This document shows, in pieces, positions 1-24,335 of a DNA stretch of 24,335 nucleotides. The position numbers were made by a program, and so were the translations under genes. The notes beneath the pieces were generated by a model. That model made no database searches and was not told where the DNA came from. It saw nothing but the letters and a program-made list of their open reading frames with translations. Each line of letters starts with the position of its first letter. The stretch's first letter is position 1. This stretch comes from Adineta ricciae (lineage: Eukaryota): contig CAJNOJ010000203.1 of the NCBI GenBank assembly GCA_905250025.1, positions 1-24,335 of the forward strand, in the 5' to 3' direction.

Positions 1-555
1 TGAAATAGCCGCCGGGGTCTAGTGGACATTCGTTGAGTTCTGTTAAGTCACGATCTGTCATTTCCGCGAGAAGACAGTATGCTGAACGCAACATGATGGG
101 TATATCGCCGATATGTACCTTTTCATACTTTTTCTCTTCGGGTGGTGAATTATCTTTATAAACAGTTTTATTTAGATCGACATATAAGGGTGCTGCATAG
201 GTTAAGTTTCTTAAGCGAGCTTCATTAGGCCAAAGATGGGCTACTCCGTCATTGGCTTGGTGAACTGGTTTGGACAAATAGACTTGTCCGAATTTAAGGG
301 TACACTTTAGTGCTGCTTTATGAGCTGTATGAGTATATTGTGCTTGTGCTTGCAGTTCAATCGGTAGAGAATCTTCTACAATGCGTTGTACAGACATCTG
401 AATGAACTCATCGAATGAGTCAAGTTGCTGACGAACAAGACCTTTCTCGTCGAAATAGGATGATATGACTGTCCAGCAAGCTTCTTGCCAAAGTTCAGGT
501 GTAATATCTCGATCATCATCGTTTTCGATTTGCGCTTGGTCATTGCTCGAATACA
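1..555 (-). CDS. POLR2B: RNA polymerase II second-largest subunit (RPB2/POLR2B), N-terminal ~185 codons; gene continues beyond window start
   Basis: Minus-strand translation from the ATG at 555-553 gives [70 protein letters not shown]...[36 protein letters not shown]. This is near-identical to human POLR2B ([45 protein letters not shown]..., [32 protein letters not shown]). No intron in this stretch. The listed 74-aa ORF 376..600 is a different, spurious frame. Confidence 0.93.
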
Positions 556-876
556 TGTTATTACTAAGTTGTTCTGCAATGAAATAATGAAAAATCCCAA
601 ATGACGGTGCTTATATGCGCCTGAGAAGCAAAAAGATGGCCAATCCGATAAATTGTACCAAACTAGATGTTTTCAAATGTTCTCGAAACTTTCACGGTTG
701 AGTTTTCTGAGAAGCTGTAGGTGTTTTTCTAGTTTCGATTAAAGATGGCTCTGTAGTCTAATGAAAAGTAATCATTGGTGCGCATCTCACCAATCGAAAT
801 CATCGAGTTTACAGACAAAATCAGAATGCATGTTTTCCGTTTTTGAAAACAGTACAGCACGCGGAAAGGAGAAAAG
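556..876. promoter_or_regulatory. Short (321-bp) divergent intergenic region between the POLR2B (minus) and NDH-2 (plus) start codons; putative bidirectional promoter with CCAAT boxes, and a polypyrimidine-AG acceptor 17-24 nt upstream of each ATG
   Basis: CCAAT at 640-644 and 790-794 (plus) and ATTGG at 774-778. The acceptor ttcattatttcattgcAG on the minus strand ends about 17 nt upstream of the POLR2B ATG. The acceptor tttttgaaaacAG (about 841-853) lies 24 nt upstream of the NDH-2 ATG (877). Confidence 0.4.
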
Positions 877-3144
877 ATGTTTTCTCGGTCGAATCTGGTT
901 CTTCAACAATTACTGATAAAGAATGCATCCCGGAATAGTTCGCTGGAACAAGTTCAATATGTGAAGCCAATACTTACTCGTAATCTTGCTTGGTTCCGCG
1001 GTCAAGCAGTGAAGGAAGCTTTTGGTATGTGAATAAAACAATATTTTGCTATGACTTGAGCTTATCTGTCGAATGTGACTAGGGACAAGGCTGAAGCGGC
1101 GCTTAAGAAATCTTCTCGTCGTAACGATTGTGGGTGGTGGTTTTTATTACGGTTATCGTAGTTATAAGAACTATAAGTGGTATCAAGAAATAACGGAGTC
1201 GGATGAAGTTATTGGTTCAAAGCCTCGGATCGTTGTATTGGGATCAGGTAAGTGATTGATTAATTATCGATTGAATGGAAATCAAGGTTTGTTTAGGATG
1301 GGGTGCTGTGCCATTATTAAAACATCTGGATAGCAAAAAATATGAAGTTGTTTGTGTCTCTCCGCGGAATTACTTTTTAATGACGCCTTTATTACCATCT
1401 GTTAGCGTTGGAACGGTGGAAACTCGAACAGTAATAGAATCGATCCGTTCATTAGTTGGACCACGTGTGAAATATGTGGAAGCAGATTGCGTTGATATTG
1501 ATCCGAAATCAAAAACTATTACATGTAATAGCGATGGTGCGAATCCAGTGTCTCGTGGTGATGATGTCAAAGCTATAGTTAAATCATCGAAACGCGAAGG
1601 GGGTGCATCATCACGAATAATCAAAGATTCAGGTACAGGAGGCTTAATATGAACTAACTTTGAGCCAGTCGTTCGTTTGAATTTAGCGCGTAGTAGACCA
1701 CAATTTCAGATGAAATATGATGCACTGGTTGTCGCAATTGGTTCTGAGAATAACACATTTAATACTCCTGGCGTTGAAGAGCATGCTCATTTTTTGAAGG
1801 AAGTCCTCGACGCTCGACGTATACGGTCAGCGATCAGTGATGCATTCGAATCAGCTAACACGCCGTCTCAAACTGATGAAGAAAGAAAGCGGCTTCTTCA
1901 TTTCGTTGTTGTTGGTGGTGGACCAACAGGCGTCGAATTCGCCGCCGAGGTAAGAATAATACGTAACCGATCGCGAAAAATCTGCCCTTTGTTTTCTGTA
2001 TGTAGCTTGCTGATTTAGTTCGTGAAGATCTTCATCATTATTTTCCACGACTTGTTGCCAATGATGTGAAAATAACATTGATTGAAGCACTTGATCATGT
2101 CCTATCTATGATGGTTTGACATCATTCTTTTGCTAAGAATCTAAACATCTCTTTTCATTTATTTACGTGTAGGACAAACAAATTAGTGACTATACAGAAA
2201 AACATTTTCGTCGTGAAAATATCGAAGTTCTCATGAATACATTTGTGAAAGAAGTGAAACAACGTGAAGTTGTTATTCAATTCAAAGGTTCCAATCAATT
2301 AACATCTATTCCATGTTCGGTTGTCGTTTGGGCAACAGGAATCAAGGCACGACCGTTAACAAATCGTATCCGAGAGATCATTGGCCTAAAAGTTCAAAGC
2401 AACCGCATGGGAATTCTGACTGATCGGTATTTACGTGTCAAAGGTGTCGAAGATGGTTCGATCTTTGCTATTGGAGACTGTGCTACCATTGAACAACCTA
2501 AACTAGTCGATCAAATTCAAACATTATTCGAAGAAGCAGATACACAACATCGTGGAGCACTTGATCTTCAGCAATTTAAGTTATTGGTCGAACGAAAAGT
2601 GGCTGAGTTTCCACAGGTAATGTTCCTGTACGTATCACCTTTCAATATTATTGGCTGGTTTTTCTTCTAGCTTGACATCTTCTCGAAAACAATCGAAAAA
2701 ACGTTTCAAGAAGCTGATAAAGATAAATCAGGTTTTCTGACTCTCGCTGCACTTCATTTGGCACTCGAAAAAGCTGATCGCAAAATTCGCGCCCTACCTG
2801 CAACCGCTCAAGTCGCCTCTCAGGAAGGCCGATACGTTGCTGATCTACTTAACCAAATACCAAATTTATCAGCCAACGATTATCAACAACATGATCTCAA
2901 ACCGTTTCGCTACAAACATATGGGCTCATTGGCTTATGTTGGTAGCGATTCTGCTGTGTTAGATTTTACTGGTACAAGACCTATTCTTGATCTCTTCAAC
3001 CTACAGCCGCTATCCGGCCGTAGTGCTGCTTATCTCTGGAAGTCATTTTATTTTACCGAAATGTTTACAGGACGCACGAAGACATTACTGGCATTTGATT
3101 GGATCCGTACGCACTTGTACGGACGAGATATAAGTCGCTACTGA
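877..3144 (+). CDS. Type-II alternative NADH:quinone oxidoreductase (NDH-2, NDI1/NDE/NDB-like) with an EF-hand-like insertion; 7 exons
   Basis: Exons: 877-1024, 1083-1247, 1297-1632, 1687-1949, 2006-2113, 2173-2616, 2671-3144 (stop TGA 3142-3144); all GT-AG, introns 46-59 bp. Protein: an Arg/Ser-rich N-terminal presequence [20 protein letters not shown]... that looks like a mitochondrial targeting signal; a hydrophobic segment [15 protein letters not shown]; then [50 protein letters not shown] (dinucleotide fold 1, split by an intron between GSG and WGA). Further: [41 protein letters not shown] (fold 2), [48 protein letters not shown]. These match yeast Ndi1/Nde1 block by block. A ~75-aa insert between GDCA and LPATAQVA contains two EF-hand-like loops ([15 protein letters not shown] and [15 protein letters not shown]). 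The exon 3/4 junction (1632|1687) is the least certain boundary. Confidence 0.85.
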
Positions 3145-3288
3145 ATACTCAGTCTTTATCATATATTTTTCCCTAGAGAATGTAGAACTCCTCTTTTATC
3201 TCATAATTTAATCTCATTTTTTATGCTTTATCATATATTTATACACAAACTTTCCTCTGACGAAATGAATTACCTGGTCATTTAAAAA

Positions 3289-3312
3289 AATAAAAAGTCA
3301 ATTTCGTTTTAG
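3289..3312 (+). promoter_or_regulatory. Intercistronic processing region: AATAAA (3289-3294) of NDH-2, followed 17 nt later by the 3' splice acceptor tcaatttcgttttAG (AG 3311-3312) that abuts the LSM1 ATG (3313)
   Basis: Sequence ...tttaaaaaaataaaaagtcaatttcgttttag|ATGgattta. The NDH-2 stop is at 3144 and the LSM1 start at 3313. The polyA signal to acceptor to ATG spacing is typical of trans-spliced operon junctions. Confidence 0.55.
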
Positions 3313-3841
3313 ATGGATTTAAGTATCGTAAACGATGATTATTACCTATCCGGTATGGCTGCTTTAGTTGGTGATATTGATAGTGAGTGATTGTTTCACA
3401 GACTTGCTACATATGGAACATATTTGCTTAGAACAGTTGATGATTATGTTACGTGATGGTCGAACGTTGATTGCTCACCTACGCAGTCTTGATCAGTTTG
3501 GTTGGAAACTTCATGAAGAATTCTCTGCTCTATTGTGAGTTTTATTATGTTTAGGTAATCTTGTGCTTCATCAAGCATTCGAACGTATCTGTGTCGGTCG
3601 ACACTATGCAGATATTCCTCGTGGTTTATTCGTTATCCGTGGCGAGAATGTTCTGTTCATTGGCGAATTAGACTTCTATCAACCTTTACGCGTTCCGTTG
3701 GTGGAAGTAACCATAGAAGAAATACTCAAATTGCAGAAAGAAGACATCGAAAAGAAGGAACAGATCGAAAAAGTTCGACGGAAAGCGATGGTTGAACATG
3801 GCCTAGTCGATGAAGGAAATCCGATTGAAGAGCAATATTAA
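3313..3841 (+). CDS. LSM1: LSM1 (Sm-like protein of the cytoplasmic Lsm1-7 mRNA-decay ring); 3 exons
   Basis: Exons 3313-3382, 3432-3500, 3555-3841 (stop TAA 3839-3841); introns 49 and 54 bp. Protein ...MAALVGDIDKQLMIMLRDGRTLIAHLRSLDQFGNLVLHQAFERICVGRHYADIPRGLFVIRGENVLFIGELD... aligns with human LSM1 (LIEDIDKKHLVLLRDGRTLIGFLRSIDQFANLVLHQTVERIHVGKKYGDIPRGIFVVRGENVVLLGEID). The start may instead be the internal Met (MAAL) at about 3355. Confidence 0.85.
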
Positions 3842-3861
3842 CTTGTTTGAAGCAAACGTCT

Positions 3862-4006
3862 AATAAACTATTGTTATTCTTGTTGTTTTTGCCTTGTGAT
3901 GATTGTAAATGTCATCACTCTCTTTTTTTTCATAGTCAGATTACCCGATGTACTTTTCCGTTCATCTTGTTTATCAATCGCATTTTGATAGAAGAAAATT
4001 TCAGAT
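3862..4006 (+). promoter_or_regulatory. Intercistronic region LSM1-PAN2: AATAAA at 3862-3867; candidate acceptors tctttttttttcatAG (AG 3934-3935) and gaaaatttcAG (AG 4003-4004), the latter 2 nt upstream of the PAN2 ATG (4007)
   Basis: The LSM1 stop is at 3841 and the PAN2 ATG at 4007 (165 bp apart). Two polypyrimidine-AG acceptors lie in the spacer; the second leaves only 'at' before the ATG. Confidence 0.5.
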
Positions 4007-5888
4007 ATGGATGGCTCTGGTGATACCCCATATGCATTGGATTATTCAGAATCCATGGCATTTTTTAATAGTGCATACAATCAAACAAGTGCACAGTCGA
4101 TAACAGCGACGGAATTCGATAGTACTCAAGAGTTACTCTGGGCGGGAAGTAATGAGGTAAGGATTGATGATGTTCTCGGGAAATTATCTTTTGAAGTCCC
4201 ATTAGGGACGTGTGGCATCATTTTATGGTTGTGAACTCCGAAAACATACCGGCTTTCGTGTTTCAACAACTTCCGACATTCGAAGTATATTATCGATTGC
4301 ACAAGGACCACTCATACTCGCTTCCGATTCACTTTCATTGTATACAAGACAAGGTTTAAATATCTTCACTCATAGGTAAATATTTGAGATATACCACTCG
4401 TTGGATTGGTGTGTCTTTTAGAGCTCCTTATCTTGACAATATGCAGTGTATGTTAATACCACAATCTCATAAACAAAAGAAAATCTATGTCGGCGGTTAT
4501 AACGGACAATTATGTGAAATGGATTTTGATAAACGAACGTTGCTTCGTCAGGTAATCATGTGAATTAATACGAAAATTACGCTTACCTTTTGAACGATGT
4601 TTCGTAGGTGACCGTCGATGAGGGTGATTGTATCATATTGAAATATTGTACGCGAAATTTCATTGCAACTGGCTCGACCAACGGTGTCGTGAATCTACGC
4701 GACCCAAATTCACTTCAAGTTATTCAACGTTTTACACCTCATCATGGAAGTTTGTCTGATTTAGATATCAATAATATGTATTTAGTTACGTGTGGTTTTA
4801 CACGAAAGTAAATCTTACACATTGAAAATACCTATGTGTTCTAGAAATCTTCGTGTTTGCTCTAGAATGGATCATATGAATCTCGATCGATTCCTTGTTG
4901 TTTACGATCTACGAAACATGCAACAATTAGCGCCGGTACCGGTTTATATCGATCCATGTTTTCTTCATTATCATACAATGACAAGTACATCGGTTATGGT
5001 TGCCTCTCAAGTAACGATAGTTTCTAGCGAGATTTCATCCAAAAACTCCGCTTTCTAGTATGGACATCATACACAAGTTGATTTAACAGGTGGTTTAACT
5101 CATACCTACTCACCGATCATTAATCTAACAACTAATCCTGCTGGTATTATAACAACATTTAGTGTTTCAACCAGTATGCATTGTACAGCATTTGGCCATT
5201 CAACAGGTAAATGACATATTGAAATTCTCAATAGTTTGGCAAGTTTGATCTTAGGTACCATACATCTATTATATAAAAATGATCCACAGTGTTGTTTTAA
5301 CTATCAATCGGTTGAAACACAATTTGCCAATCCAGTACGTAGTTTTTCATTTCGCATTAGATCTCGATGTGTATTACATTCGTATATATCTCTGTTTCAG
5401 CCAGTTGATCCAAAAGTAGGAGATCTTAACGATCCAATGAGCTCTCTGTCGAGCGTACCTATTCCAATAACATCACATAAACTCTTGTCAGATATGCCTA
5501 AACAATGGACCAAATCGATCGCCAGGTAGGAAAAACAAATCAACAAAGAATGAAGTCAACAGGGGTATCTTGTTTTAGGCCAACACCGAAGATTCCAAAG
5601 GAGTTTCTTGATAATGTTCGTGTGTTTCAAGGTCTTGCTTGTGTTAAAAATCCATCAACACGTCGTGCTAATCAATGGCCCTATCCACCCGATGCAGACA
5701 CGTTGGCACCACGTGAACAAATAAAATTTTTACCTGACGAAGATGAAAATACGAATCCGAACGAGAAAAGTAATCCAGACGGAACAGCAAATGAAACTGA
5801 AGCCAACAATCTTAATTTCGATGCTCTATCACTTGATCAACAACCTCAAGATAAAGCACCAACACCTCCAACAACAGCGAACACATGA
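4007..5888 (+). CDS. PAN2-like protein comprising only the N-terminal WD40 beta-propeller and the PAN3-binding linker; no UCH-like or DEDD exonuclease domains before the stop; 9 exons
   Basis: Exons 4007-4156, 4206-4375, 4422-4551, 4608-4807, 4845-5010, 5059-5206, 5255-5334, 5401-5525, 5579-5888 (stop TGA 5886-5888); introns 37-66 bp. Colinear matches to human PAN2: ELLWAGSNE|GRVASFYGCELRKHTGFRVSTTSDIRS (human EEMLWVGSHGGHATSFFGPALERYSSFQVNGSDDIRQ); KIYVGGYNGQLCEMDFD; FIATGSTNGVVNLRDPNSLQVIQRFTPHHGSLSDLDINNMYLVTCGF (human FFCGHTSGKVSLRDLRTFKVEHEFDAFSGSLSDFDVHGNLLAACGF); LDRFLVVYDLRNMQQLAPVPVYIDPCFLHY (human CDRFLKVYDLRMMRAITPLQVHVDPAFLRF); GLACVKNPSTRRANQWPY (human GYAPNPRTRLRNQIPY). The ORF then runs into a low-complexity acidic tail and stops. 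Only AT-rich non-coding sequence with an AATAAA (5989-5994) follows before CRIPT. Confidence 0.8.
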
Positions 5889-6238
5889 AATGTTATTAGT
5901 GAAACTTTCTTTCCCTTTTATACATACTTTTGTCTTCATTTATTCCATATTTTGTTGTTGGTTATTCTTATTGCGTATACATATATAGAATAAAAAAATA
6001 TTTTCTTTTCGTTTCTCGTATACAGTGCATCTCTGTACGGATCATCAACACATTTTCCAATGTATCAATTGGTGCGAGGTACATACATATGCATGGCAAG
6101 AACAAGCTCCATCTATGCTCAAAAGAGGACGCGAGTTGTTTCTGGCAACTATATATTGGTTGAGTTTTGTACAGAAGAAAAGAGTGAATCTATAATATTG
6201 TCGTCGTTTCATTTCATTTCGTTTACCTAATAACAATC

Positions 6239-6753
6239 ATGGTTTGTGATGCATGTAAGTTTGCCTTCGACTTATTTGTCTGAAATAAAGACGAAATGTT
6301 GATTTAGGTCAAAAGAAAGTTGGTCGTATCGCCACTCAAGATGTTTGGAAAAGTATGTTGAAGAAATGTTATAACTATTAATTATTGATGGTTTTCATAT
6401 TTTAGGTGGTTCACGCAATACCGTCGGTATGATGACTTTCCCCTCAATTCATTCTGCATTCGTTTTCTCGTTTTAATAGAAAGTGGCGGTAAAAAACTGA
6501 ATGAAAACAAATTGCTATCAGGCAAATCTTCTCGGTATATTGGATTTCGAACAATAACTTCATTCTTATCATCTCTTACTCTTATAGGTACAGCCCATAT
6601 ACGACAAAGTTTAACAAGTGTAAACTCTGCAAATCAACAATTCATCAGCCCGGAAGTGCTTATTGCCAAGGTTGTGCGTACAAATTAGGCATATGTGGCA
6701 TGTGTGGAGTGAAAATTTTAGAAACAAAAAATTATCGTCAGTCTGCTGTTTAA
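6239..6753 (+). CDS. CRIPT: CRIPT (cysteine-rich PDZ-binding protein); 5 exons
   Basis: Exons 6239-6254, 6308-6352, 6406-6426, 6480-6534, 6588-6753 (stop TAA 6751-6753); introns 53 bp each. Protein MVCDACQKKVGRIATQDVWKSGSRNTVESGGKKLNENKLLSGKSSRYSPYTTKFNKCKLCKSTIHQPGSAYCQGCAYKLGICGMCGVKILETKNYRQSAV aligns along its length with human CRIPT (MVCEKCEKKLG...CRICKSSVHQPGSHYCQGCAYKKGICAMCGKKVLDTKNYKQTSV). The C-terminal -QSAV is a PDZ ligand like human -QTSV. Confidence 0.85.
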
Positions 6754-6793
6754 ATCGATCCCTTTTGCGTTATGATTGTAATTACATACGAGT

Positions 6794-6829
6794 AATAAAG
6801 ATCTCCTCTAATTTGTTTTTCAGATAAAT
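6794..6829 (+). promoter_or_regulatory. Intercistronic region CRIPT-HINT: AATAAA at 6794-6799, acceptor atttgtttttcAG (AG 6822-6823) 6 nt upstream of the HINT ATG (6830)
   Basis: The CRIPT stop is at 6753 and the HINT ATG at 6830 (76 bp apart). Sequence gagtaataaagatctcctctaatttgtttttcag|ataaatATGtcg. Confidence 0.55.
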
Positions 6830-7267
<438 letters not shown>

Positions 7268-7433
7268 TAGTTTTGTGGTGGAGATGCTCTTTTTTCAAAA
7301 AGACAGTTTAGTTTAGTGGTGCAGGCCTTTCTCGCAAGAATTTAATAAAAGATATTGCAAAAATCATTTTGAAAATCTCGCAATGATTTATTTAATTATA
7401 TGAAAATATGAGGAGAAAAAGTTGACAATGATC

Positions 7434-9717: not shown

Positions 9718-10342
9718 CTACGAACTAAAAAAAGCATACAATCATCTCGTTTTGCTATCTGAATGTATGTTTTCCGCCTTCACTCAGTAAAAGAGTAGGC
9801 AACAAAATAACGAACGCGACCAATATGCTGTTGATTTGTTACACCGAAAGGTAATCAAGCGTGATACTCTTTCTTTTTCTTACCTGAAAATCGAATATTT
9901 TTTCATTATGTTTCAATCGTCCTGAGCGTAGCGTTTATGTGACAGAAAAATAACACAATCAGTTCTTTGCTACGTTAACGCGATTACTGATATCTACATT
10001 GAAAGGCACATGTTAGCATGAAAGAAAAGATTCCCTGTGATATTCTTTCATACATGGACAGAACGAAAATATGATTCACATTTTTTATTTCTATGTGCTT
10101 ATTACGATTGTGCGCTGGATTTATTTCTTTTTTTTTAAATACACACGATGACATGTAATGAAAAGAAAAATATTGTCTATTGGAAGAATCGACTTGGTCA
10201 TAGATATTCATTGGATTATGGCTAAAAATAAACAAAATAATGAAATTCCAATTTACGGAGAATTAAAAGAACAGTGAGAAAATTGTGAAAGGGAAACATG
10301 CGAAGGTGGAGTGTGCAGACGAGACTTACTCAGCAAAATGGA

Positions 10343-11929
10343 TTACGCTAGAGGAGACTATTTTAGGAACGAGATTTCGTTTGGTATGTGATGACTAACC
10401 TGCTTTTCTATTTGCATTTGCTGTATGGTTTTGGGTGCTGCTGAAGGGAAAAATGATTCTTTGGTAGTTTTAGCTGTTGCCCCGGGATTGAAGCCTCCTA
10501 AAATATCAAGGCCAGCAAATGGACTTGTGACCGGCGGTGGAGGGGTCGGTGAGATAGGCGAAGGAGTCATCGAACTCAATTGGGATTGTTGAGGTTGAAG
10601 AAGTATTGATGTAGGTGTGATTGGACGTTGTTGCTGCGTTTGTGGTTGAAGATAATTCGGCATCGTGTTTATTGGATTTGTTTGAATAGGTGTAGCAAAG
10701 GAATTGCCGTATAGATTAGGTAATTGTGTTTGCGGTGTTGTGATGGGAGTAGAAAATGCATCCAGTAATGAGTTTGTAGTAGTAGTTGTTGTTGTTGATG
10801 GCGCCGATGTTGTTGTAAAAGAAAGATCGCCAAAAACGCTGTCCAAAGACTAAAGATAAACACATGCATAAAAATACTTTTGTCAAAGATCTCTTTGCTT
10901 TCACATTGAATATGTGATAAGATAAGAAATATTGCGAGGAAAAGAATTTTTCGAAGTCTTGAATGGTTTTATTCTAGTTTTCTAAATCCTACCTCTTCAG
11001 CTTTTGGTGCCGGATTCTGTGCAACAGCTGGTGTAGAGTCGTTTGTACCCCATAAGTCTAGACCACTGCTAGCAGCAGCAACAACAACAACAGGTTGAGT
11101 AGGTGGCGTCGTTGGGCTCGGAGTTGTATCCCAGATTGAATTATCATCCAGAAGTGATCCCTTCAAGCATATGGGCATTAGAAAAATTGAACTAGTCGGA
11201 CAAGGATAATTACCGCTGATGGTGAAATGATCGAACCTGCATTAGCTTGTGGTGGCAATACTGGCGATGTAGCACCATTTGGTGTTGTTTCCTAAACAAA
11301 AATTAATTAAGATGATAAATACGGTAGGTAATCCACTCACTGCAGGTTTGCTTTCGCTTTCTTTTAGTTTGACGTCATTCGTATATTTCTCAAAAGCTAA
11401 CTCGAAAAGTTCTTTCAACGCCAGTACTGTTGCTGCGGCAGCTCGTTCCGTTTTAATAGCCCAAAATTGATGACGATCGTCCGATGTGTTATAAATATAT
11501 CCGAATGCTCGAGTGTCACGTGGATCAATTACGACAAACGATATACGTTCAATTTCATGGCAAGCAATTTGTGCCTAAAAAATGTACATTAGCACGAGAA
11601 AAAGATCTGATTTCTTTTCTTTTTCAACAACGTACTTTAGTAGTCTCATCGGTGATTTTTACTGTCGTCATCGTTAAGTTCAATTGAATTCGTTGTTTGT
11701 GTTCACCACGGGCACGCACAACAGCTTTCAATTTAAACATCGAATCAAGACAAATTTTTTCATCTCGATCCACAGTTAAATCTTCCATTCCGATTAATTT
11801 GGCTCGAAATGGAAGTCCATCGCCTTCGAACTTCTTCGTGTTAGCCGCAGCTGTTGTCGCGGCTTTCTTCACTTCATCGTCTTTCGGCGTTGGACTTGCT
11901 GGCGGAGTAGTTACTGCCGGTTCAGACAT
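10343..11929 (-). CDS. Disabled (DAB1/DAB2-like) PTB-domain endocytic/signalling adaptor; at least 5 exons with a tentative short terminal exon
   Basis: Exons (minus) 11929-11636, 11574-11341, 11291-11214, 11160-10993, 10849-10400, plus a tentative terminal micro-exon 10357-10343 (…IEKQ|SPLA*). PTB domain: KKFEGDGLPFRAKLIGMEDLTVDRDEKICLDSMFKLKAVVRARGEHKQRIQLNLTMTTVKITDETTK|AQIACHEIERISFVVIDPRDTRAFGYIYNTSDDRHQFWAIKTERAAAATVLALKELFELAFE. This matches Dab1 ([36 protein letters not shown]...[85 protein letters not shown]). The C-terminal half is Ser/Thr/Pro/Gln-rich low complexity with DAFS and FAGLDILGG motifs. The 3' end is uncertain. Confidence 0.75.
10763..10800 (-). repeat. Coding ACA/ACT (Thr) triplet repeat inside the DAB C-terminal exon (poly-Thr TTTTTTT)
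   Basis: Minus-strand sequence acaacaacaacaactactact(aca) encodes STTTTTTTN within ...FTTTSAPSTTTTTTTNSLLDAFS. It is a short, imperfect trinucleotide microsatellite. Confidence 0.6.
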
Positions 11930-12428
11930 CTTCGTATAACTTGTGATAGATGCTAAATGAATCAAACGAAAGACAAATGCAACACCGCTGCAGCCGTGTA
12001 GATAGATGATAAGAAGATATTCTTTGATATACTCAGGTCGTTTTCTTATTCGTTTGAATACCTTAAGTTAAATATCAGCTAGAAGTGTTGGCCCGTAGGT
12101 GTAAAATGCAGCAAGAAAAAAAAAGATAACTCAATACAACAGATAAGCAGATAAACTCTCGCGTCTTTTGGTTCTCATACAAGGAAGCTTTTGTAATTCG
12201 TTGAATACCGTAGTTATCACGAAATTTTCTTACTTACAAAGCGTATGTGTAGAAAAGCGCATCCGTTCGTCCTCCACTTCGATCATCAATTGTATTGCTC
12301 ATGTAGTATCAATGATCGCTACTGATTAGATAAAACTTCTTATTTCGCGTTTCGAATTTCTTTATTCGAACAATGAATCAATAACGACATACAATACAAA
12401 GAGAAAGGAAGGAGGAACTAGGGAGTTG

Positions 12429-13583: not shown

Positions 13584-14877
13584 CGGAATACACTTTGATG
13601 AACTAAAAAAGTCGAGATAATCGTTGATAACTACGAGAGTCAGTTACGAAATGTTTGCAACTACGCAAATTGCTCTGCAAGGAGGTGAAACATGCTCTTG
13701 TGAATAATAATAAGGGGGAGAAAAATAATGCTTTGCACTCGTTATAACCTGGGATATCTTTGATAACCCCTTTGACATTGAAGCGGTTAATTGATGGAGA
13801 AAAAAATCTAACAGAATCAAAGGTAATCTAGATTATGTGATTTTCTAGCTGATAAAACTGTCTTTACTACAATGTTATTTCTCTTCAATCTACGTACTCA
13901 GAAAAAAAGGATTCGTGCTCGATATGCAAGAGAATAGGTAACAAACTTTTGACTCGACCGATAATTAACGGAATGACGAGATAAGTACTTGTTGTCATGC
14001 ATCATCAATTATGTTAGAAGAAAAACATCTGCGTTTTGAACTGTTGGGACAGAGTAGAGCTATTTTAGTGAGCACTATCGAGCGGAATGCTTTTTCTAAA
14101 TAAGATACACCGGAGACACACACGAGAGAGCAATCAAAACGAGATAAAAGAAAACAGAAAAACAAAACTGTCATTCTCCCGACGCACATCGGTTTTTTTC
14201 TCTGGAAATCTTGACCAGACTTAAGAATTCTGCCTCTGTGCATTATCAAAAGCACCTTTAAAAAAATGTCATTCATTTCCTCAGAGGACAAAATTGAGAT
14301 TTTATGTCATTATATTTTATAAAATAAGGACAACGCTTCTCAATGAAGCAACATAAAATAGAAACAGTTTTTCGAACCGTATTAGATATTTATAAGACTA
14401 ACTAATAAGAATTCATTCATTTTGCATGTCTTCAATCAGCACACGCGATCTGGGTACGCTGAACAATCAATCTTATGTTTCATTTCTCTCTCGAGGAGAA
14501 TATAATTCCCGCCTACATTGTATACATGTCGCAATAATGATAATAACCGAGAAATTTCGTAAGTAGCAAGTTCAACAGTATGGCGGAGTACACCTTCTTT
14601 TAATTAAAAAAGCTTATTAACGTCGAACTTATCTCGCATTTGTCTATCCTTCACGAGTACAGGTTACTGGATGCTCGTAACTTTTCCTTAGATAGATTTA
14701 TTATGAATATCTTCAGGATATTTCCATTTTCGTTATGTTGTATGCCACAGACAGAACATAATCAATAAATCTACATGATTTTATTAGATGTGATAACTAA
14801 ACAATTACAAAGCAATCCCAGAAATGACCTACAATCATCAAATCTTCTAAAATTTATGTCAAATTTGAATTAAGTTT

Positions 14878-17102
14878 TCAGTTCGTAACTTTCTTTGAAA
14901 AGTTCGCATCAATTTTTAAAGTTATTTTATGCCAGGAATTATTCATCACACCGCGAATATTCCATATACCTAATGGAGAGTCAGGTTGCGAATTCGAATG
15001 GACGTCCATTGCGCGACAAACGACGTCGAAAGGCTCCGAAGGGAGATCTTTCAATGGAATGTGAGTAGACCAAAGAGTCCATGCCCATGCACGCATATAC
15101 GGTTGAGCAAGTTGTTCCAAATCAGCTTGCAACCAAGTTTTCCTGTAGAAAGAAAATAAGAACTTTATCTTGACACATATATGATTAAAAATTCTTTTCA
15201 AAAACAAGTTCTTGTCTCGTGAACTTCCTATACAATAAGTATAAATAACAGCTACTTATATATTCAAAGGCGCAAATCTCGATAATATCAAACACGAATA
15301 GATACTGTTCTTCATTAGAACCAGACACTCGGTATTATTTGGTTAATGCGCCATATAGAGTAGAAAAGAAAACGGACGTTATTCTCCGCTTCTGCTGCCC
15401 ACGTTGTGTTCGCTTGTTTCTTTTACATTTATGTCTCGAGGTCATTCTAAACTGGTGATTAGCTTACCCATGATCGAGACTGATCTGCACGTTTTGAACT
15501 TGCCTTCCGCCTCCACCGACTGCGTAACCTTTGATTGTTAATGTTTGATTTTTAGCATCCTCACCAGTCGGTTTAACCGAAAGAATTTTCACTTTATTCC
15601 CATCTTCAGTCGATGCAGGATAACAAATCGCTGATTGAACATTTGATTCTTGTATTGCTGGTACACGATCATAATCGGCTTGTTGTGGCTGTTTGATGGA
15701 CTGTGGCAGAACTTTATAATCAGCCTTTTGCCAATGGCTATCCGATTCCTCGTTGGAAACAATAATTCGATTGACCCACTTGACACTTCGCGCGCCGACT
15801 GTGCCCGGGACAATAATACGTAGAGGATATCCATGATCACTAGTTAGAGTTTCATCATTCATTTCATATGCAATGAGAACATCATCACTGAGTGCTTTCT
15901 CCATTGGAATCGATGCACCATAACATCTAAAAAGTAAAATAAACATACGTTGCATTTTTCTGGGTCAATCAAGCTTTTTTAACCTTTGTGATGTATCACA
16001 ATCAAGTCCCACAAACTGCACATGTTTGCCCTCTTTGAGTAAGCCAAACGATTCTAAGACGTCGCGTAATTTCACACCTGTCCACCGAGCATTGCCAATA
16101 GCGCCAACATACCATGGTGTGCCTTGTACAGAACCTTGTGCATCGTTATTCATAGCTGCACGACGATTTCCTGCACATTGTAAAGCAGATGTAACTGTAT
16201 GCGATTGGTATTTATCTTTTAAATCATCGTAGGAAAGAGTATGTGCTGAAGTTCCATCGCCAATCTCCAGTTTGAACTCGTTAATGTTGACGAAGGGTAC
16301 GTGCATATGATTTCGAACATAGAATTTTTCGATTGGTGTCAGAAAAGATGAAACGAGAACTGTAGGCTTTGTTTCGGCATTGAATGGCTTTTCCGAGCGA
16401 ATGAAAAAGTTTTCAGTCGCATTGATTCGCTCAGGATCGTATTGAAATAAATCAACGACTTCCTCTTGAGCTTTCGCATTTGCTTCGCGTTCACCTACAA
16501 AATTCGACGCTGAAAACAGAAACAGATATTCCTGCTCGTACGATACCTGGTGGAAGATTTCCTATGCGATATTGTTCTAAGGTCTCGTACACATGATCAA
16601 TTTGATGGATAGTAAAGATTTTCCAACATGCTTCTAAAGCTTTACCGGCAGTTTTTAAAATTTGTTTTCCTCCGGGATGATTTTCAACGAATGCGCTTAT
16701 ATCATAGACTCCATCTTTATAAGCGAGCCAATAGCCTTAAGAAAAATTCCATTGAAATTTTTTCCGAGAAGATGAATTTTCAAATTTCTATTTGTTTCTG
16801 GTTTTTAGAGAAATCAATACCATTTTCTTTCGTTGTATGCTTTGCTACTTCAGTCATGCTATACGTCGGTAAAGATGATTTATGTTCACCAATAACGAAC
16901 GGAGTTTTTGTTGTGTCAGCATAAACTACTGGTCTGTATTTGTTGAAAAGATAACCTTTAAAAGAAATGGGACAGTATTACATTTCATGGTCATGTGTAC
17001 AGATAAAATGATTCTACCTGCAGCTAAACTACTAGTGAAACCAATAGTAAGAATAGATGCTTTGGATTTTTGGCGAAAAATAGTTGTTATTCGTGATCGC
17101 AT
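14878..17102 (-). CDS. SUOX: Sulfite oxidase (mitochondrial; cytochrome b5 + Moco + dimerisation domains); 6 exons
   Basis: Exons (minus) 17102-17018, 16955-16821, 16735-16547, 16509-15984, 15926-15468, 15142-14878 (stop TGA 14880-14878). Introns are 62, 85, 37, 57 and 323 bp. Presequence MRSRITTIFRQKSKASILTIGF. Cyt b5 heme motif HTTKENGYWLAYKDGVYDISAFVENHPGG. Moco domain FNAETKPTVLVSSFLTPIEKFYVRNHMHVP, LQCAGNRR, GTPWYVGAIGNARWTGVKLRDVL, YGASIPMEKALSDDVLIAYEMNDETLTSDHGYPLRIIVPGTVGARSVKWVNRI, SHWQKADYK. Dimerisation domain TIKGYAVGGGGRQVQNVQISLDHGKTW...RAWAWTLW...NIRGVMNNSWH. It is colinear with human SUOX. Confidence 0.9.
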
Positions 17103-17300
17103 TTTGTTGAGGTCAATTAGAATCTAAATTTGAGTCATTTATCATTCTTAACACCATCTTTGACATTTTACACGATTGATCAATTGTTTCAACCAATAAG
17201 ACGCTGTCCTATTTGTCTTCCGCAGTCAATCGTACGATTTGTTCTTTTACCGTCCACATTTGACTCATTAATACTAATGAAAATTTTCTGAAATTCAACC

Positions 17301-18520: not shown

Positions 18521-19362
18521 AGCAATCCGCAAAGTTCAGTCTCAGTATTTGTGATATTTATCCTGACGCAGATTTAATTTTATTTAAACGAACATAAAAA
18601 CTAGACAAATCTTTCAGCAGATACAATCATGTCCTTAGCATTTTCTTTTTATTTATCTATAAGACGTTGTTCTTTGCTTTTGTTTAAAGAAAAAATATTT
18701 GTTATTGATTTCATCCAATATAAGAGTATTCGTACAGTGAAAAATTCCTAATCTTTACTCTTTTCAACTATCATCATCACAATTTCAAATTAACATACGA
18801 TCAATCTATATCTACAGATGTCACAGAAAAAATGTAGAGTAAAGCCTGGATGGTGAATATCTATGAAAAATAAATTTTACCTCAGACTGGGTAAACAAAA
18901 GCAAACGAAGTCGTGTTAATCATAACTGCAGAGAGAAATATTTCTGACGAAATGACTTTTGCAATTGCAGAAAACTGACACGTAATGTCTTTTCACAACA
19001 GTAATAGGCTGATATGCAACATAATTTTTCACAATCTCGTTGTAATATTGTATAAAATTTCGGCCCCATATTTTTCCTGTTCTTCTCTCATTCACTCTCC
19101 GACAGCCCTTTTACTTTTCCTGTCCTTATTTACGACGTGAATCAACCTTATTCAACGGTTATTGTCGACAAGTATTGCAAAGCTCGGTGGCAACTACCAC
19201 TGATGTCATTTCGCAATCGAGTGAAAACTAGATGTTTTTCTTCTTTGAATTAACCCTTCTATGTCTTATTTTTTGTCTAAACGGACAATCGCATACATAA
19301 AAGGAGTTATTTTTCTTGCAGATTCCTGTCGTTTTTCTGTTGCAAAGCGAAAGAAGCATACT

Positions 19363-22300
19363 ATGGCCGATTCAAAAGTTAGCGGTGGTAAGACCAGTCA
19401 TCGGATGTATACAATACGAAACTCTAAATGTGTTCTTTGCTACTTTAGTCTATCGAATTCCTCCTTTCTACTATTTACATGTACTTGATCAAAATACCAA
19501 CGTCACTCGACTTGAAGTTGGTCCAAAAACCTTCGTCAAGCAAGATCATGAGAAGGTCATCCTCGGACCTGAACGCATGTTAATCATTCCGTATGTTCGC
19601 ATTCAATGTGATCGAAAGTAGTCATCTTATTTCTTTCGTATTTTCCTCTTTAGACCACGTCACTATTGTGTAGTGGAGAATCCAGCCATTCGAGACAAAG
19701 ATGGCAAAGTTGTTACAGATTCGAATGGTCAAGTGAAATTGCTTCACTCAGATGTTGATATTCGTTTCGCCCAAGAGCCATTTCCCCTCTATCCAGGAGA
19801 AGTTCTCAAACAAGCAGTCACACCATTAAAAGTCATTGAGCCTAACTGTGCATTACGTCTTCGTGCCGTCTTGGATTTTGTTGATGAAAACGATAAACAA
19901 ATTCGAGCTGGAGACGAATTTCTCTTTCAAGGACCTGGTATGCTTTGAAAAAAAAACCATCTCGTGTCAGTCATTCTTTCCCTTTCTTTTAGGTACCTAT
20001 CTTCCTCGTAAGGAGGTTAGTGTTGAAGAACAAATCAAAGCAGTCATCTTGAAACCAGGCGAAGCCGTTCGTTTACGTGCTAAAAAAGAAATGACAGATC
20101 GCGATGGTATTGAACGCGAAACAGGCGAAGAATGGCTGAACCGAACAGTCGGATCCTACTTACCCTTAGCCTATGAAGAAGTTGTCTCAACAGTCAAAGC
20201 CTATGTGCTTACTGATAAAGTGTGTATTTACCGCTACGATCTAATTCAAAATACACGACGAATGTTTGGGTTTGTTTTGTAGAAAGCACTTCATGTCCGT
20301 GCACTGCGCACATTTACGGATGCATTCAAACACAAACGTCTTCATGGTGAAGAATGGTTAATCTATGCCAGCGATGCCGAAACCTACATTCCCGACGTAT
20401 ATGAAGAGGTAGATTGGACAGCACTGTTTTGGAAAATAATATGAATTTGAATTTGATAGGTTGTTGGCGTTGTATCTGTAACCGTGTTGAACTCTCGTCA
20501 ATATTGCGTCATTCTTGATCCAGTTGGTTCTGACGGTAAACCACAGCTTGGAAAGAAAAAACTCGTTAAAGTATGATGCGCTCCAACTTGTATAAAGCAG
20601 AAAATATATCTAAATATCTTTTATAGGGCGAAAAATCCTTCTTCCTTCAGCCCGGTGAAAAATTAGCTAAAGGCATTCAAGATGTCTACGTTCTTGAAGA
20701 AGATGAAGGTCTTATCCTACGTTGCACAGAATCATTCAAAGAAGATGGGGTAAGTTTGTGACCATCGATCAATACATAATAAACTGTTTTGACGTTTTAT
20801 AGAAAGTCGTTAGAAATCCTGGTGATCGCTGGATGGTTCGCGGGCCTAAAGATTATATTCCAGCTGTTGAAGCTGAAGTTGTTCTTCGTCGTAAAGCAAC
20901 CCCATTGGATGTCAATGAAGGAATTTACGTTCGTGATGTTAAAACCGGTAAAATTCGATCGGTCATCGGCAGTACATATTTATTGACTGAAAATGAAGAA
21001 CTTTGGGAAAAAGATTTACCAGCACAAGTTGAGCAATTGATCACTTTAGATCCACGATACTTTGAAGATAAAGCAGGACTTCCTACTACTATTCCACCAC
21101 GTGATAAATCTAAAGTTGTTGTCTACCGTGTGCCACACAATGCATGTGTACAAATCTACGATTATAAATCAAAGAAGGCGCGTATTGTTTTTGGTCCTGA
21201 ACTCGTTATGCTTGGTCCCGATGAGCAATTCACCGTTTTGAATCTTTCCGGTGAAAAACCCAAAGTACCCAACAAAATCCGTGCTATCTGTCTTCTCTTG
21301 GGCCCGGAGTTTTCCAGTGATATTGTTACCATTGAATCAAGTGACCATGCTCGTCTATCTCTTCGACTTTCTTACAACTGGCACTTCGAAGTACGAAGAA
21401 TAGATTTCAGCAAACTAGATTTCATTGACGGTTTTGTTTACTTGTAGGTTACTGATCGTAATGACCCGAAAGAAGTTGCTAAACTCTTTTCAGTCCCTGA
21501 CTTCATCGGAGATTTCTGCAAAGCTGTTGCTGCCAAGATCCGTGGTGCCGTTGCTGCTATCCCTTTCGATGATTTTCATAAGAACTCAGCTAAAATCATT
21601 CGTACATCAGTATTTGGCCTTGATGAAAATAAACGAGTCAACAACCGATTACTATTTCCACAAAATAACTTGGTTTTAACTTCAATTGATATTCAAAGTG
21701 TCGAACCTGTTGATCAACGAACACGTGATGCACTTCAGAAGAGTGTCCAATTGGCTATCGAAGTATGTTGCGAAAGACAAGATTGAATTGTAGATAGAAA
21801 ATAATGATGATGATGATATCATTTAGATCACAACCAATTCACAAGAGGCTCAAGCTAAACATATGGCCTCTCGAACTGAACAAGAAGCCAAAGGTCATTT
21901 GGAACGACAGAAGATTACCGATGAAGCTGAAGGTAAGATTGAACCTGGCGAAAAATAGGACCGGGAAAACATCTATTGTTTATTTTTTTCAGCTGAAAAG
22001 GCTCGACGAAAACTATTGCAACTTCAAGCACTATCAGCTGCTGTTGAATCAACCGGTCAATCGCGTGCTGAAGCACAATCACGAGCTGAAGCTGCTAAAA
22101 TCGAGGGTGAAGCAGCAGTTGAACAAGGTAATATGATAACATTCTTTTGTTGAATAATTTTTAAACAACATAATTTCATTTTTTTTAGCCACACTTCGTG
22201 CCCAAGCAGCTAAGATCGAAGCTGACATCGAACTTTACCGATTAACTCAAGCTCGTGAATTGGAATTGAGCTATTCGAAATTAGTTTCTGATCTTGAAAT

Positions 22301-22588
22301 TGAAAAAGCCAAACGATTAGCTGATATCGAAACTGAAGAATTCAAACAACATGTTTCTGCTATTGGACCTAAGACCATACAAGCAATCGCAACAAGCGGA
22401 CCTGATAATCAAGTACGACTTTGCTTTTTGGAGTTCAAATTGATCTTTTTTATGAAAACCTTTGTTTTTAGGTCAAACTTCTTCAAGCACTTGGTATCAA
22501 ATCAACTTTGATCACTGATGGACGTAGTCCAATCAATCTTTTCAACACAGCTGTTGATTTAGTTGGAACACCAGCTGTGCAACAATAA
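19363..22588 (+). CDS. MVP: Major vault protein (MVP), complete copy A; 13 exons
   Basis: Exons 19363-19387, 19449-19590, 19654-19937, 19993-20219, 20283-20408, 20460-20570, 20627-20749, 20803-21390, 21448-21762, 21827-21932, 21993-22127, 22189-22412, 22472-22588 (stop TAA 22586-22588); introns 51-64 bp, all GT-AG. It is colinear with human MVP along the whole length: [29 protein letters not shown] ([28 protein letters not shown]); [14 protein letters not shown]; GEEWL repeats; [24 protein letters not shown]; [52 protein letters not shown]; [34 protein letters not shown]; coiled-coil cap [40 protein letters not shown]; and the C-terminus [27 protein letters not shown]. Confidence 0.92.
21688..21846 (+). 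repeat. 159-bp tract ~99% identical (2 mismatches) to the inverted tract at 24077-24235 in MVP copy B; spans the end of one exon, an entire 64-bp intron (21763-21826) and the start of the next exon
   Basis: Direct comparison of 21688-21846 with the reverse complement of 24077-24235 gives gatattcaaagtgtcgaacctgttgatcaacgaacacgtgatgcacttcagaagagtgtYcaattggctatcgaag GTATGTTGCGAAAGAMAAGATTGAATTGTAGATAGAAAATAATGATGATGATGATATCATTTAG atcacaaccaattcacaaga. The flanking coding DNA of the two copies is only about 70-75% identical, and that divergence is mostly synonymous. Confidence 0.85.
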
Positions 22589-23401
22589 TCAGCACTCATG
22601 CAAACAACTAAAACCCATATGAGTGCCGTCAGATTTTTCAAAAACAAAATCCAACACTTCATTGTGACAGTTCTTACCTTTTTGTGTAACCTATAGAAAA
22701 TTTTGTTTTCAAGCATCATTTAAGAAATAAATACTATACATATACATACGTTAAAGTTCATATTTTTACTCAAATGTTCAGAACGACAATAGAAGATCGA
22801 TCTGAAGTCGGTTGATTATTCGTGAGATTTGGTGACTGATGTGTAAAGAAAAAATATTTATATCCGAAGGCTTATATGTTGATAAAACGCAAAAGGTAGT
22901 GACGTCAAGTGTTTGCGTTTATTGTCCCTATATCCCTGCCGCGCATAGCAAGGAACAACAGTATTGGGTTATGTCTTTCTATAGAAAAAAAAAACTACGA
23001 AAACCAATTTCTTTGTCGAAGTTTAGTGAATTCACATTTCTCACTATGATTCATTCTCAACTTCGAACCCTCGACAAATGACCTCATTTTCACCTTTATA
23101 AAGTCCACGATGTGAGAATAGAGGGATGAGGTGTGCGAGCTCCTCCTACTTCTTCTTCTTCGTAGCACCTGGGAAATTTTCTCTATTCTGTATCTGCAAA
23201 AATGATTGAACAATGTTGGTCAAGCCATCCTCATTTTTAGCGACAATCGAGAAGCAATACGTTGGCAAAAGAACGTGTTTAGTTTTGTTGTCAGATTTAT
23301 TATTCATACATAAACTTGAAAGGAGAACATAATCAAGCTAAAAGTTTTATTATAAAATAACATGAAGACAAGTGCACGAAGTTCTCAATATCGCATCGGG
23401 T

Positions 23402-24335
23402 TTATTCGTTTTCGACGACTTGATATCCGTTTGAAGTGTTTCGGGATGCTCCAGCATTTCGGTTGGTGTTTGTGGTTAAACCACCAAGAAGGCCTTGGCC
23501 AAATCCCATAAGATTGATCGGTGTATGACCATCGGTGACAAGCATTGATTGAAGACCGAGTGCTTGAAGAAGTTTGACTTGAGTATCTGGACCAGAGGTA
23601 GCGATGGCTTGAATGGTGGACGATCCAATGGATTCGACTTGTAATTTGAATTTTTCTGTTTCAATGTGTGACATTTCGGCTTTTTTACTAATTTCTAATT
23701 CATTTTGATCATGAAGAAATTTGATCTCAGCTTCACGAGCTAATTTCAAGCGTGATAATTCAGCCTCGGCTTCGATACGAGTAGCTTCAGCTTTGAGACG
23801 AGCTATTCAAAAGAAGAAATTAGCAATGTGAAGAGGTCGAAAAAACTTTCTCTACCTTGTTCGACGGCAGCTTCTCCTTCGATTTTGGCAGATTCTGCTC
23901 GACTTTGAGCTTCAGCTTTAGCTTGGCCAGTTGATTCGACAGCAGCTGATTGTGCTTGTAATTCGAGAAGTTGTTTACGAACTTCCTCAGCTTCAGCTTC
24001 ATCTTTAATACGTTGTCGTTCTAATAAACCTTTGGCTTCTTGTTCACGCCGTGAAGCCTCATGTTTAGCGGCAGCTTCTTGTGAATTGGTTGTGATCTAA
24101 ATGATATCATCATCATCATTATTTTCTATCTACAATTCAATCTTTTCTTTCGCAACATACTTCGATAGCCAATTGAACACTCTTCTGAAGTGCATCACGT
24201 GTTCGTTGATCAACAGGTTCGACACTTTGAATATCGATGGATGTGATAACGAGATTATTTTGAGGGAAAACAAATTGATCGCGAACGCGTTTATCAGCAT
24301 CAAGACCGAAAACTGCGGCACGGATGATTTCTGCT
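23402..24335 (-). CDS. MVP: Major vault protein paralog (copy B), C-terminal three exons; gene continues beyond the window end; convergent with copy A
   Basis: Exons (minus) 24335(partial)-24161, 24096-23856, 23802-23402 (stop TAA 23404-23402); introns 64 and 53 bp. Protein ...[58 protein letters not shown]|[80 protein letters not shown]|[108 protein letters not shown]... It is about 70% identical to copy A in protein sequence. It lacks two introns that copy A has, at the DEAEAE|K site and before VKLLQ. Its C-terminal tail differs. Confidence 0.88.
24077..24235 (-). repeat. Partner of the 21688-21846 tract (inverted orientation) inside MVP copy B, including its 64-bp intron 24160-24097
   Basis: See the 21688-21846 entry. 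The intron length (64 bp) and sequence are conserved except for one C/A difference. Confidence 0.85.

Follow-up and report, generated by a model that had tools for sequence, protein, structure and literature searches.

Splice acceptor motifs before start codons and candidate operons in a compact region of the Adineta ricciae genome

A genomic stretch of 24,335 nt from the bdelloid rotifer Adineta ricciae (contig CAJNOJ010000203.1 of assembly GCA_905250025.1, positions 1 to 24,335 of the forward strand; hereafter called the window) contains 13 close-packed genes with very short introns. In the window and in the related bdelloid loci compared with it, about half to two-thirds of the start codons are preceded, at 0–41 nt, by T-rich motifs ending in AG, which are very probably the 3′ splice sites to which the bdelloid spliced leader (SL) is joined. 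SL trans-splicing in rotifers was reportedly first described in 2005 by Pouchkina-Stantcheva and Tunnacliffe in A. ricciae and a Philodina sp. The 23-nt leader GGCTTATTACAACTTACCAAGAG is added to >50% or approximately 60% of the mRNAs of A. ricciae (PMC1925144; PMC3795323 Table 1; PMC4824033). SL trans-splicing in this organism is thus already known and was recovered here from the genomic side. A first-pass annotation of the window, made from the sequence alone, had proposed a predominantly SL trans-spliced transcriptome with very short 5′ untranslated regions (5′UTRs), which our analysis supports and which is a published property of A. ricciae.

The finding of the acceptors is therefore a rediscovery that adds little new biology, and it shows that genomic sequence by itself is enough for SL trans-splicing to be recognised. 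In the mechanism as we picture it, the SL of a separate SL RNA would be joined by the spliceosome to the AG, the sequence upstream would be discarded, and the mature mRNA would consist of the SL, 0–41 untranslated nucleotides and the ATG. More interesting, and worth pursuing, is the operon-like organisation of some of the genes.

Acceptor motifs before the start codons

The 13 gene models were curated by hand, junction by junction, and have 12 start codons in the window; the 13th gene, MVP-B, extends past the window end. The ATGs are located on the minus strand for POLR2B (556), ACE (9717), DAB (11929), GPCR (13583) and SUOX (17102), and on the plus strand for NDH2 (877), LSM1 (3313), PAN2-N (4007), CRIPT (6239), HINT (6830), SLC35E (17301) and MVP-A (19363). 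Pfam bore out the identities of all 10 window proteins scanned. The start codons of most genes were independently validated because the spliced models are identical to deposited A. ricciae proteins, which was the case for six of the seven compared (HINT, LSM1, CRIPT, SLC35E, SUOX and PAN2-N); the MVP-A model had no exact deposited match. The single-exon GPCR was found on a further A. ricciae assembly (GCA_905250095.1).

In DNA of this composition an AG is expected within 45 nt of any position approximately 93% of the time by our estimate. An AG near an ATG is therefore almost guaranteed, and we scored the quality of the sites instead. The 3′ splice-site matrix, which spans 20 positions, was derived from the 52 cis-introns of the window, whose acceptors (median score 9.2 bits) have as consensus a T-rich tract followed by TAG/G, with T at position −3 in 45 and CAG in 3 of the 52. 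Sites of at least 6 bits within 60 nt before the ATG were considered acceptor-grade. This threshold was picked after the scores had been seen; cut-offs of 5 and 8 bits led to the same conclusion.

All the AGs named in the first-pass annotation exist, at about the distances given there. Its claim of a strong acceptor before 11 of the 12 start codons was overstated: 6 of the 12 have a site of at least 6 bits, and 7 of the 12 have one at a cut-off of 5 bits. ACE has the tandem acceptors 'atgctttttttAG' and 'ttcgtAG' (9718–9737, minus strand; 12.1 bits at 7 nt and 8.3 bits at 0 nt before the ATG), both of which are kept in a second A. ricciae copy of the region (L003) that was fetched for comparison. 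MVP-A is preceded at 41 nt by 'atttttcttgcAG' (19309–19321, plus strand; 9.7 bits), DAB at 23 nt by 'ttgattcatttAG' (11953–11965, minus strand; 8.7 bits) and GPCR at 19 nt by 'tcgacttttttAG' (13603–13615, minus strand; 7.1 bits). The LSM1 acceptor 'aatttcgttttAG' (3300–3312, plus strand; 8.2 bits) abuts the ATG at 3313, and the HINT acceptor 'atttgtttttcAG' (6811–6823, plus strand; 6.7 bits) ends 6 nt before its ATG. To these six we add as credible the PAN2-N acceptor 'aagaaaatttcAG' (3992–4004, plus strand), which scores 0.7 bits and lies 2 nt before the ATG at 4007, a weak score at a conserved position. The borderline site of POLR2B, 'tatttcattgcAG' (574–586, minus strand; 5.0 bits at 17 nt), is possibly used as an SL acceptor. 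The number of credible sites is thus 6 to 8 of 12, not 11. Of the eleven sites put forward in the first-pass annotation four or five do not rise above chance, so that it erred in degree only.

At the remaining start codons the sites are of another quality. NDH2 'tttttgaaaacAG' (840–852, plus strand; 0.0 bits at 24 nt, shuffle P = 0.77) and SUOX 'gactcaaatttAG' (17124–17136, minus strand; 1.0 bits at 21 nt), both listed as acceptors in the first-pass annotation, are at chance level and not acceptor-grade, and the NDH2 motif is probably not used. For DAB two candidates had been put forward, of which 'tacgaAG' directly before the ATG is not credible (−3.9 bits), and 'tcatttAG' some 20 nt upstream is the 8.7-bit acceptor at 23 nt. 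SLC35E, for which no acceptor had been seen, has no AG whatever within 60 nt. For CRIPT there is no acceptor of at least 5 bits within 60 nt before the ATG. A more distant candidate (approximately 6025, 213 nt before the ATG) scores 3.9 bits, no better than shuffles, and was rejected, as was an AG 64 nt before the ATG (7.1 bits), which has not been kept in the other A. ricciae copy.

Could T-rich 5′ flanks together with the common AG give, by eye, a polypyrimidine-AG near most ATGs merely by composition? For single sites chance does hold, as the scores of NDH2 (0.0), SUOX (1.0), the 0-nt site of DAB (−3.9) and the distant site of CRIPT (3.9 bits) illustrate, and a score of 6 bits is attained in approximately 17% of 60-nt windows drawn at random from intergenic DNA, which corresponds to 2.1 expected among 12 start codons versus 6 observed (P = 0.01). 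Dinucleotide shuffles of the 12 upstream regions gave 2.6 expected versus 6 observed (P = 0.02). The regularity, which the first-pass annotation had considered to be far above chance, is therefore modest in the window alone; it is strong in a pool of 39 bdelloid starts, composed of those of the window, of its A. ricciae ohnologue (L088; an ohnologue being the sister copy from an ancient genome duplication), of A. vaga (L085) and of A. steineri (L086). In the pool 24 of 39 starts have an acceptor of at least 6 bits within 60 nt versus 18% expected (P approximately 2e-9), and so do 13 of the 24 A. ricciae starts taken separately (P = 4e-5), as compared with 4 of 39 in the antisense control. When binned by 30 nt, 24 of the pooled sites lie at 0–29 nt before the ATG versus 1–7 per bin farther upstream, and the median distance from acceptor to ATG is 12.5 nt. 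The enrichment of the class is approximately 3.4-fold, with a sharp peak at 0–29 nt before the ATG. Chance, which also does not account for positions that are conserved across species, is already refuted for the acceptors as a class, and as an explanation of the pattern we consider it very unlikely. Good acceptors precede 50% of the window starts and 62% of the pooled ones, which fits the published proportion of SL-carrying mRNAs (>50% to approximately 60%).

Conservation is most evident before HINT, where 'AATAAAGATCT...TTTCAG' with the AG 6–7 nt before the ATG is shared by 8 of 10 bdelloid sequences. The remaining two belong to a single environmental bdelloid and carry 'cgcttcAG' 10 nt from the ATG, so that the acceptor is CAG in all 10. 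Before PAN2-N the AG is located exactly 2 nt from the ATG in all 6 bdelloid sequences, with 9.4–11.9 bits in three of them and weak scores in A. vaga and both copies of A. ricciae; in an RNA contig of another bdelloid (L093, see below) the PAN2-N acceptor scores 8.6 bits. The TTTAG 23 nt before DAB is common to A. ricciae, A. vaga and A. steineri. LSM1, GPCR and NDH2 keep a near-ATG acceptor across bdelloids, the position of which shifts: LSM1 has an AG 0–13 nt before the ATG in the second A. ricciae copy, in A. vaga and in environmental bdelloids, the spacer preceding it in L093 ends with 'tatttgtAGat' before the ATG, and GPCR of A. vaga is preceded at 9 nt by an acceptor of 12.5 bits. For POLR2B a 6.0-bit site lies 12 nt before the ATG in the second A. 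ricciae copy, and in A. vaga there is no more than an AAG at 11 nt (0.2 bits).

The closeness of the motif to the ATG, together with the short 5′UTRs that are possible in compact genomes, would also be compatible with a core-promoter or translation-context element. Against this, the motif fits the matrix of cis 3′ splice sites across its 20 positions, the obligatory AG among them, and its distance to the ATG varies from 0 to 41 nt. The motif also sits in transcribed spacers of polycistronic RNA, and an SL junction is seen at such a site in the paralogue HINT2 (both described below), which makes this interpretation exceedingly improbable.

Trans- versus cis-splicing at the acceptors

The AGs before the start codons could be the acceptors of ordinary cis-spliced 5′UTR introns with non-coding exons upstream, and deposited gene models sometimes treat them as such. 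The deposited HINT protein P0122 begins with 'MIINMSDE...' by use of a GTAATT donor 46 nt upstream, and DAB and ACE as well as a major facilitator superfamily gene (MFS) and cyclophilin are annotated as fusions. An intron of this kind requires a donor at the right distance. The best donor 42–70 nt upstream had a median score of −0.7 bits for 24 ATG-proximal acceptors, 7.7 bits for cis-introns and 0.3 bits for random positions (ATG-proximal versus cis, Mann-Whitney P = 1e-11). A donor of at least 6 bits was present for 78% of the cis acceptors but for only 1 of the 24 ATG-proximal ones (4%), which is the same rate as at random. No paired donor at intron distance was thus found, which argues against ordinary 5′UTR introns, the alternative against which the first-pass annotation had asked its proposal to be checked. 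Moreover, RNA contigs keep the entire spacer between two genes while all flanking cis-introns are spliced out, and the spacer before HINT, with its 76 nt, would place the 5′ exon in the 3′UTR of CRIPT. An origin of the motifs in cis-spliced 5′UTR introns is therefore hardly credible.

A direct view of the leader was obtained from L007, a contig of a Logan RNA-seq assembly. It starts with CTTACCAAGAG, the 3′-terminal 11 nt of the SL, and continues with the mRNA of HINT2 (ohnologous to the window HINT), the junction being located 25 nt upstream of the start codon. A sister contig (L006) begins exactly at this junction. The 11-mer occurs once in the 404 kb of sequence fetched, where 0.18 occurrences are expected by chance. 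We infer that in A. ricciae the SL is joined at exactly the credible AGs described above. Nucleotide identity to the genome of Rotaria sp. Silwood1 is 68–74%, too low for the 5′UTR of L007 to be aligned and the junction to be placed on a genomic AG. The SL sequence was not found in the window, in which there is no SL gene, and no Rfam family matches the window. SL-derived peptides were not found at the N-termini of HINT-family open reading frames (ORFs). A metagenome scan with CRIPT, in a collection that apparently lacks the metatranscriptome samples described below, yielded mostly genomic contigs, numerous sequences from outside the rotifers and no SL-bearing transcripts, and exact-protein look-ups for the window proteins returned genomic records only.

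Several points have to be set against the assignment of the motifs to the SL. The matrix with which the putative trans acceptors were scored is derived from cis-introns. The enrichment in the window by itself has P values of just 0.01–0.02, and those of the pool are optimistic, as the pooled starts include orthologues and are not independent. The PAN2-N acceptor, with its 0.7 bits in A. ricciae, is proposed from the conservation of its position. Finally, the sole SL junction (L007) comes from the HINT2 of a Rotaria-like species, not from a window gene or from A. ricciae.

As a side result, CAG was found to be commoner among ATG-proximal acceptors (7 of 24) than among cis-intron acceptors (3 of 52; P = 0.009), although the matrix penalises CAG. 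In the window the CAG-type acceptors are those at 6823, 19321 and 574 (minus strand). The consensus sequences of trans and cis acceptors may differ slightly.

With respect to the bdelloid SL system as published, the window does not differ in kind. The species, the 23-nt leader (as a suffix on L007), the acceptor fraction of 50–62% and the short distances to the ATG are the same, and the window is an instance of this system seen from the genomic side.

Candidate operons and polycistronic RNA

The presence of an acceptor follows the arrangement of the genes. In the window none of the four genes at divergent promoters (POLR2B/NDH2 and SUOX/SLC35E) has an acceptor of at least 6 bits, as compared with six of the eight genes that lie downstream of a co-oriented neighbour. 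POLR2B and NDH2 share a divergent region of 320 nt. For the A. ricciae window and its ohnologue L088 together, an acceptor is found on 11 of 15 co-oriented downstream genes and on 1 of the 8 genes that flank divergent promoters (Fisher P = 0.008). The genes without acceptor are thus not random exceptions; they adjoin divergent promoters or head co-oriented clusters. Likely this is so because NDH2-LSM1-PAN2-N and CRIPT-HINT are each transcribed into one polycistronic RNA.

The first candidate operon (877–5888, plus strand) consists of NDH2, a spacer of 168 nt, LSM1, a spacer of 165 nt and PAN2-N; the second (6239–7267, plus strand) of CRIPT, a spacer of 76 nt and HINT. From the sequence a poly(A) signal AATAAA is predicted for NDH2 at 3289–3294 (plus strand), 16 nt before the acceptor AG of LSM1, and for CRIPT at 6794–6799 (plus strand), 22 nt before the acceptor AG of HINT, where the motif AATAAAGATCT is conserved. 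At these two distances cleavage and trans-splicing would fall at nearly one point. The AATAAA predicted for LSM1 (3862–3867, plus strand) lies 21 nt after the LSM1 stop codon and approximately 135 nt before the PAN2-N AG. In the 350-nt spacer between PAN2-N and CRIPT no acceptor is conserved, and at its end lies an element that is conserved with A. vaga; among the RNA contigs recovered none was found to bridge it. All this suggests, as the simplest reading, two transcription units, NDH2-LSM1-PAN2-N and CRIPT-HINT, that are resolved by the SL. Each cluster would be transcribed as a single polycistronic pre-mRNA, which would be cut into single-gene mRNAs by 3′-end cleavage at the AATAAA of the upstream gene, coupled with SL trans-splicing at the acceptor 16–22 nt (or approximately 135 nt) downstream.

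Just before the ATG of CRIPT there is an acceptor-free element (6206–6238, plus strand; 'gtttcatttcatttcgtttacctaataacaatc', 'gtttcatttcatttcgtttacctaataacaa') that is kept in A. ricciae and A. vaga, and an acceptor-free element 'catgttttccgtttttg' upstream of the ATG of NDH2 (approximately 812–836) is likewise kept in both species. Judged by sequence, they are candidate promoter or 5′UTR elements of the first gene of each cluster. Together with the lack of acceptors on these first genes they would, indirectly, favour one promoter ahead of each cluster.

RNA contigs were recovered via the orthologous proteins from bdelloids other than A. ricciae, in eight samples (three JGI, five Logan), L002, L004 and L005 coming from metatranscriptome samples. 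L093 and L094 contain NDH2-LSM1-PAN2-N and are colinear with the window exons up to the PAN2-N start; introns are gone (in L093, those of the aligned part) and spacers are kept. The L093 spacers measure 102 and 133 nt, and at the end of each a good acceptor is found, 2 nt away from the ATG. L004 contains LSM1-PAN2-N with the spacer kept and LSM1 intron 2 retained. For intron 1 of LSM1 this RNA used, instead of the usual TAG, a CAG located 5 nt farther downstream, which results in a frame shift (L004 1–230); the window counterpart of the alternative acceptor is 'gcttAGaacAG' at 3425–3436. The alternative splicing shows that L004 derives from RNA.

L002 contains CRIPT-HINT with all 5 introns removed and an 82-nt spacer kept, and L005 and L008 contain cyclophilin-CRIPT-HINT2 with introns removed and spacers kept, L008 being colinear with the ohnologous A. 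ricciae genome minus the introns. L006 and L007, in which introns are likewise spliced out and the spacer is kept, contain HINT2 followed by a gene X, an ORF of 126–128 amino acids (aa) without a Pfam match on record. In L007 the SL is thus found on HINT2, the fourth gene of the cluster MFS-cyclophilin-CRIPT-HINT2-X, and the same RNA runs on into X. Altogether five different types of gene junction are spanned by polycistronic, cis-spliced contigs. The order MFS-cyclophilin-CRIPT-HINT2-X is kept in A. ricciae, where the gaps of the cluster in L088 are 131, 55, 115 and 111 nt, and in Rotaria sp. Silwood1, where the spacers are 85–141 nt long and an 8–11-bit acceptor precedes each downstream gene. 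A. vaga, A. steineri, Rotaria sp. Silwood1 and the ohnologous region of A. ricciae preserve the clusters, and in all of them CRIPT and HINT are next to each other. We infer that the polycistronic RNAs are productive precursors and that internal promoters are absent within the clusters.

Against operons the following can be said. The polycistronic RNAs come from bdelloids other than A. ricciae, and they could be rare unprocessed, minor precursor or read-through RNAs. The contig look-up ranks the longest first and therefore favours polycistronic contigs. L093 has 43 nt of non-SL sequence before the ATG of NDH2, and this 5′ end is possibly incomplete, so that the absence of the SL from NDH2 says little. 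ACE, DAB and GPCR have strong acceptors though they lie 499–1294 nt behind their upstream neighbours; trans-splicing is thus not confined to tight clusters.

The acceptors could therefore be real SL sites of genes that each have their own promoter, the contigs being read-through products, unprocessed nuclear RNA or assemblies bridged via overlapping UTRs. That ACE, DAB and GPCR are equipped with acceptors despite their long spacers indicates that trans-splicing needs no operon, many genes outside operons are SL-spliced in Caenorhabditis elegans too, and the bias of the retrieval towards long contigs points in the same direction. On the other hand, polycistronic and cis-spliced contigs were found in eight samples and for five types of gene junction, the spacers of 55–168 nt leave scant room for promoters, and the presence of an acceptor tracks the downstream position of the gene. 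With an AATAAA 16–22 nt before the acceptor the ends of the mature mRNAs would barely overlap, so that bridging would need reads from a precursor. The clusters are, in addition, shared by the lineages of Adineta and Rotaria and present in both ohnologous copies. We consider independent promoters throughout rather unlikely. That NDH2-LSM1-PAN2-N, CRIPT-HINT and MFS-cyclophilin-CRIPT-HINT2-X are functional operons of bdelloids, and still unreported ones, is a tentative proposal to which we give somewhat less than an even chance.

The candidate operons have in common with the SL operons of nematodes the co-oriented genes, the short spacers, the 3′ splice site before the downstream genes and the AAUAAA shortly upstream of it. 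In C. elegans the SL2-type operons have intercistronic regions of approximately 100 nt, and in the SL1-type operons the trans-splice site directly adjoins the poly(A) site. The LSM1 to PAN2-N junction, where AATAAA and AG are approximately 135 nt apart, is similar to the SL2 type, and the NDH2-LSM1 and CRIPT-HINT junctions, with 16–22 nt, resemble the SL1 type. For rotifers only one SL is listed (PMC3795323; PMC2481426 Table 4), and evidence for or against a second leader dedicated to operons was not found.

The operons of tunicates (Ciona, Oikopleura) and chaetognaths employ one SL or a non-specific SL, and their intercistronic regions are very short or absent. The similarities to the candidate operons are these: one type of leader serves operon and non-operon genes, the spacers are tight, the genome is compact and the poly(A) signal adjoins the acceptor. 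Rotifers differ from both in being an independent lineage with another leader sequence. Chaetognaths are grouped with rotifers in the Gnathifera; operons, for which a spacing of <250 bp was the criterion, contain 18% of the chaetognath genes (PMC12460157); the window spacers of 168, 165 and 76 nt are all below this value.

In the literature operons of rotifers are given as 'ND', not determined (PMC2481426 Table 4, 2008), or as 'not reported' (PMC7986045, 2021), and a literature search, which did not cover the primary SL description of 2005, found no report of them. If the proposal is true, rotifers would be the second gnathiferan lineage, after the chaetognaths, with SL-resolved operons. This would bear on the question of a single versus a repeated origin of trans-splicing and operons in animals, and it would explain the survival of some gene neighbourhoods where ancestral linkage has otherwise been lost.

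The ohnologous region L088 (A. ricciae CAJNOR010001163.1) has LSM ... CRIPT-HINT2-X on one strand and ACE, DAB and GPCR on the other, an order that parallels that of the window, with cyclophilin and MFS in the place of PAN2-N and NDH2. The parallel order fits the degenerate tetraploidy of bdelloids. The 3′ end of L094 is an Illumina adapter (AGATCGGAAGAGCACACGTCTG), a small contamination of the public assembly.

Gene models and other features of the window

Deposited gene models appear to have been misled by orphan acceptors, at which gene predictors invent 5′ exons or fuse neighbours; herein lies the practical significance of the acceptors for annotation. Within 6772–6829 the deposited A. ricciae HINT model P0122 ('MIINMSDE...') has an invented 5′ exon, which starts from an ATG in the 3′UTR of CRIPT and is spliced through the weak GTAATT donor to the acceptor at 6823. 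DAB and ACE are fused into a deposited product of 1077 aa, and MFS and cyclophilin are fused in the annotation of a Rotaria assembly.

The window has a G+C content of 37.7%. The first-pass annotation had correctly described it as part of a highly compacted metazoan genome. Its estimate of about one gene per 1.9 kb agrees with the 1.87 kb per gene measured, and its intron lengths of 37–65 bp are close to the 42–66 nt found for 49 of the 52 introns, the outliers measuring 85, 143 and 325 nt. The 325-nt intron is located in SUOX (15143–15467, minus strand) and the 143-nt intron in DAB (10850–10992, minus strand); neither of these two large introns matched Rfam. Three intergenic stretches of 0.8–1.3 kb (13584–14877, 18521–19362 and 22589–23401) are without gene model or Rfam match.

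The 'PAN2' gene (4007–5888) encodes in its 485 aa the N-terminal WD40 domain only, without the UCH and exonuclease domains, and its size of approximately 480–487 aa is kept across bdelloids.

MVP-A and MVP-B are tail-to-tail paralogues that share an inverted arm of 350 nt with 84% identity (21588–21937 versus 23986–24335), including a near-identical intron of 64 nt, whereas other parts of the two proteins have diverged. The arm may be a gene-conversion tract.

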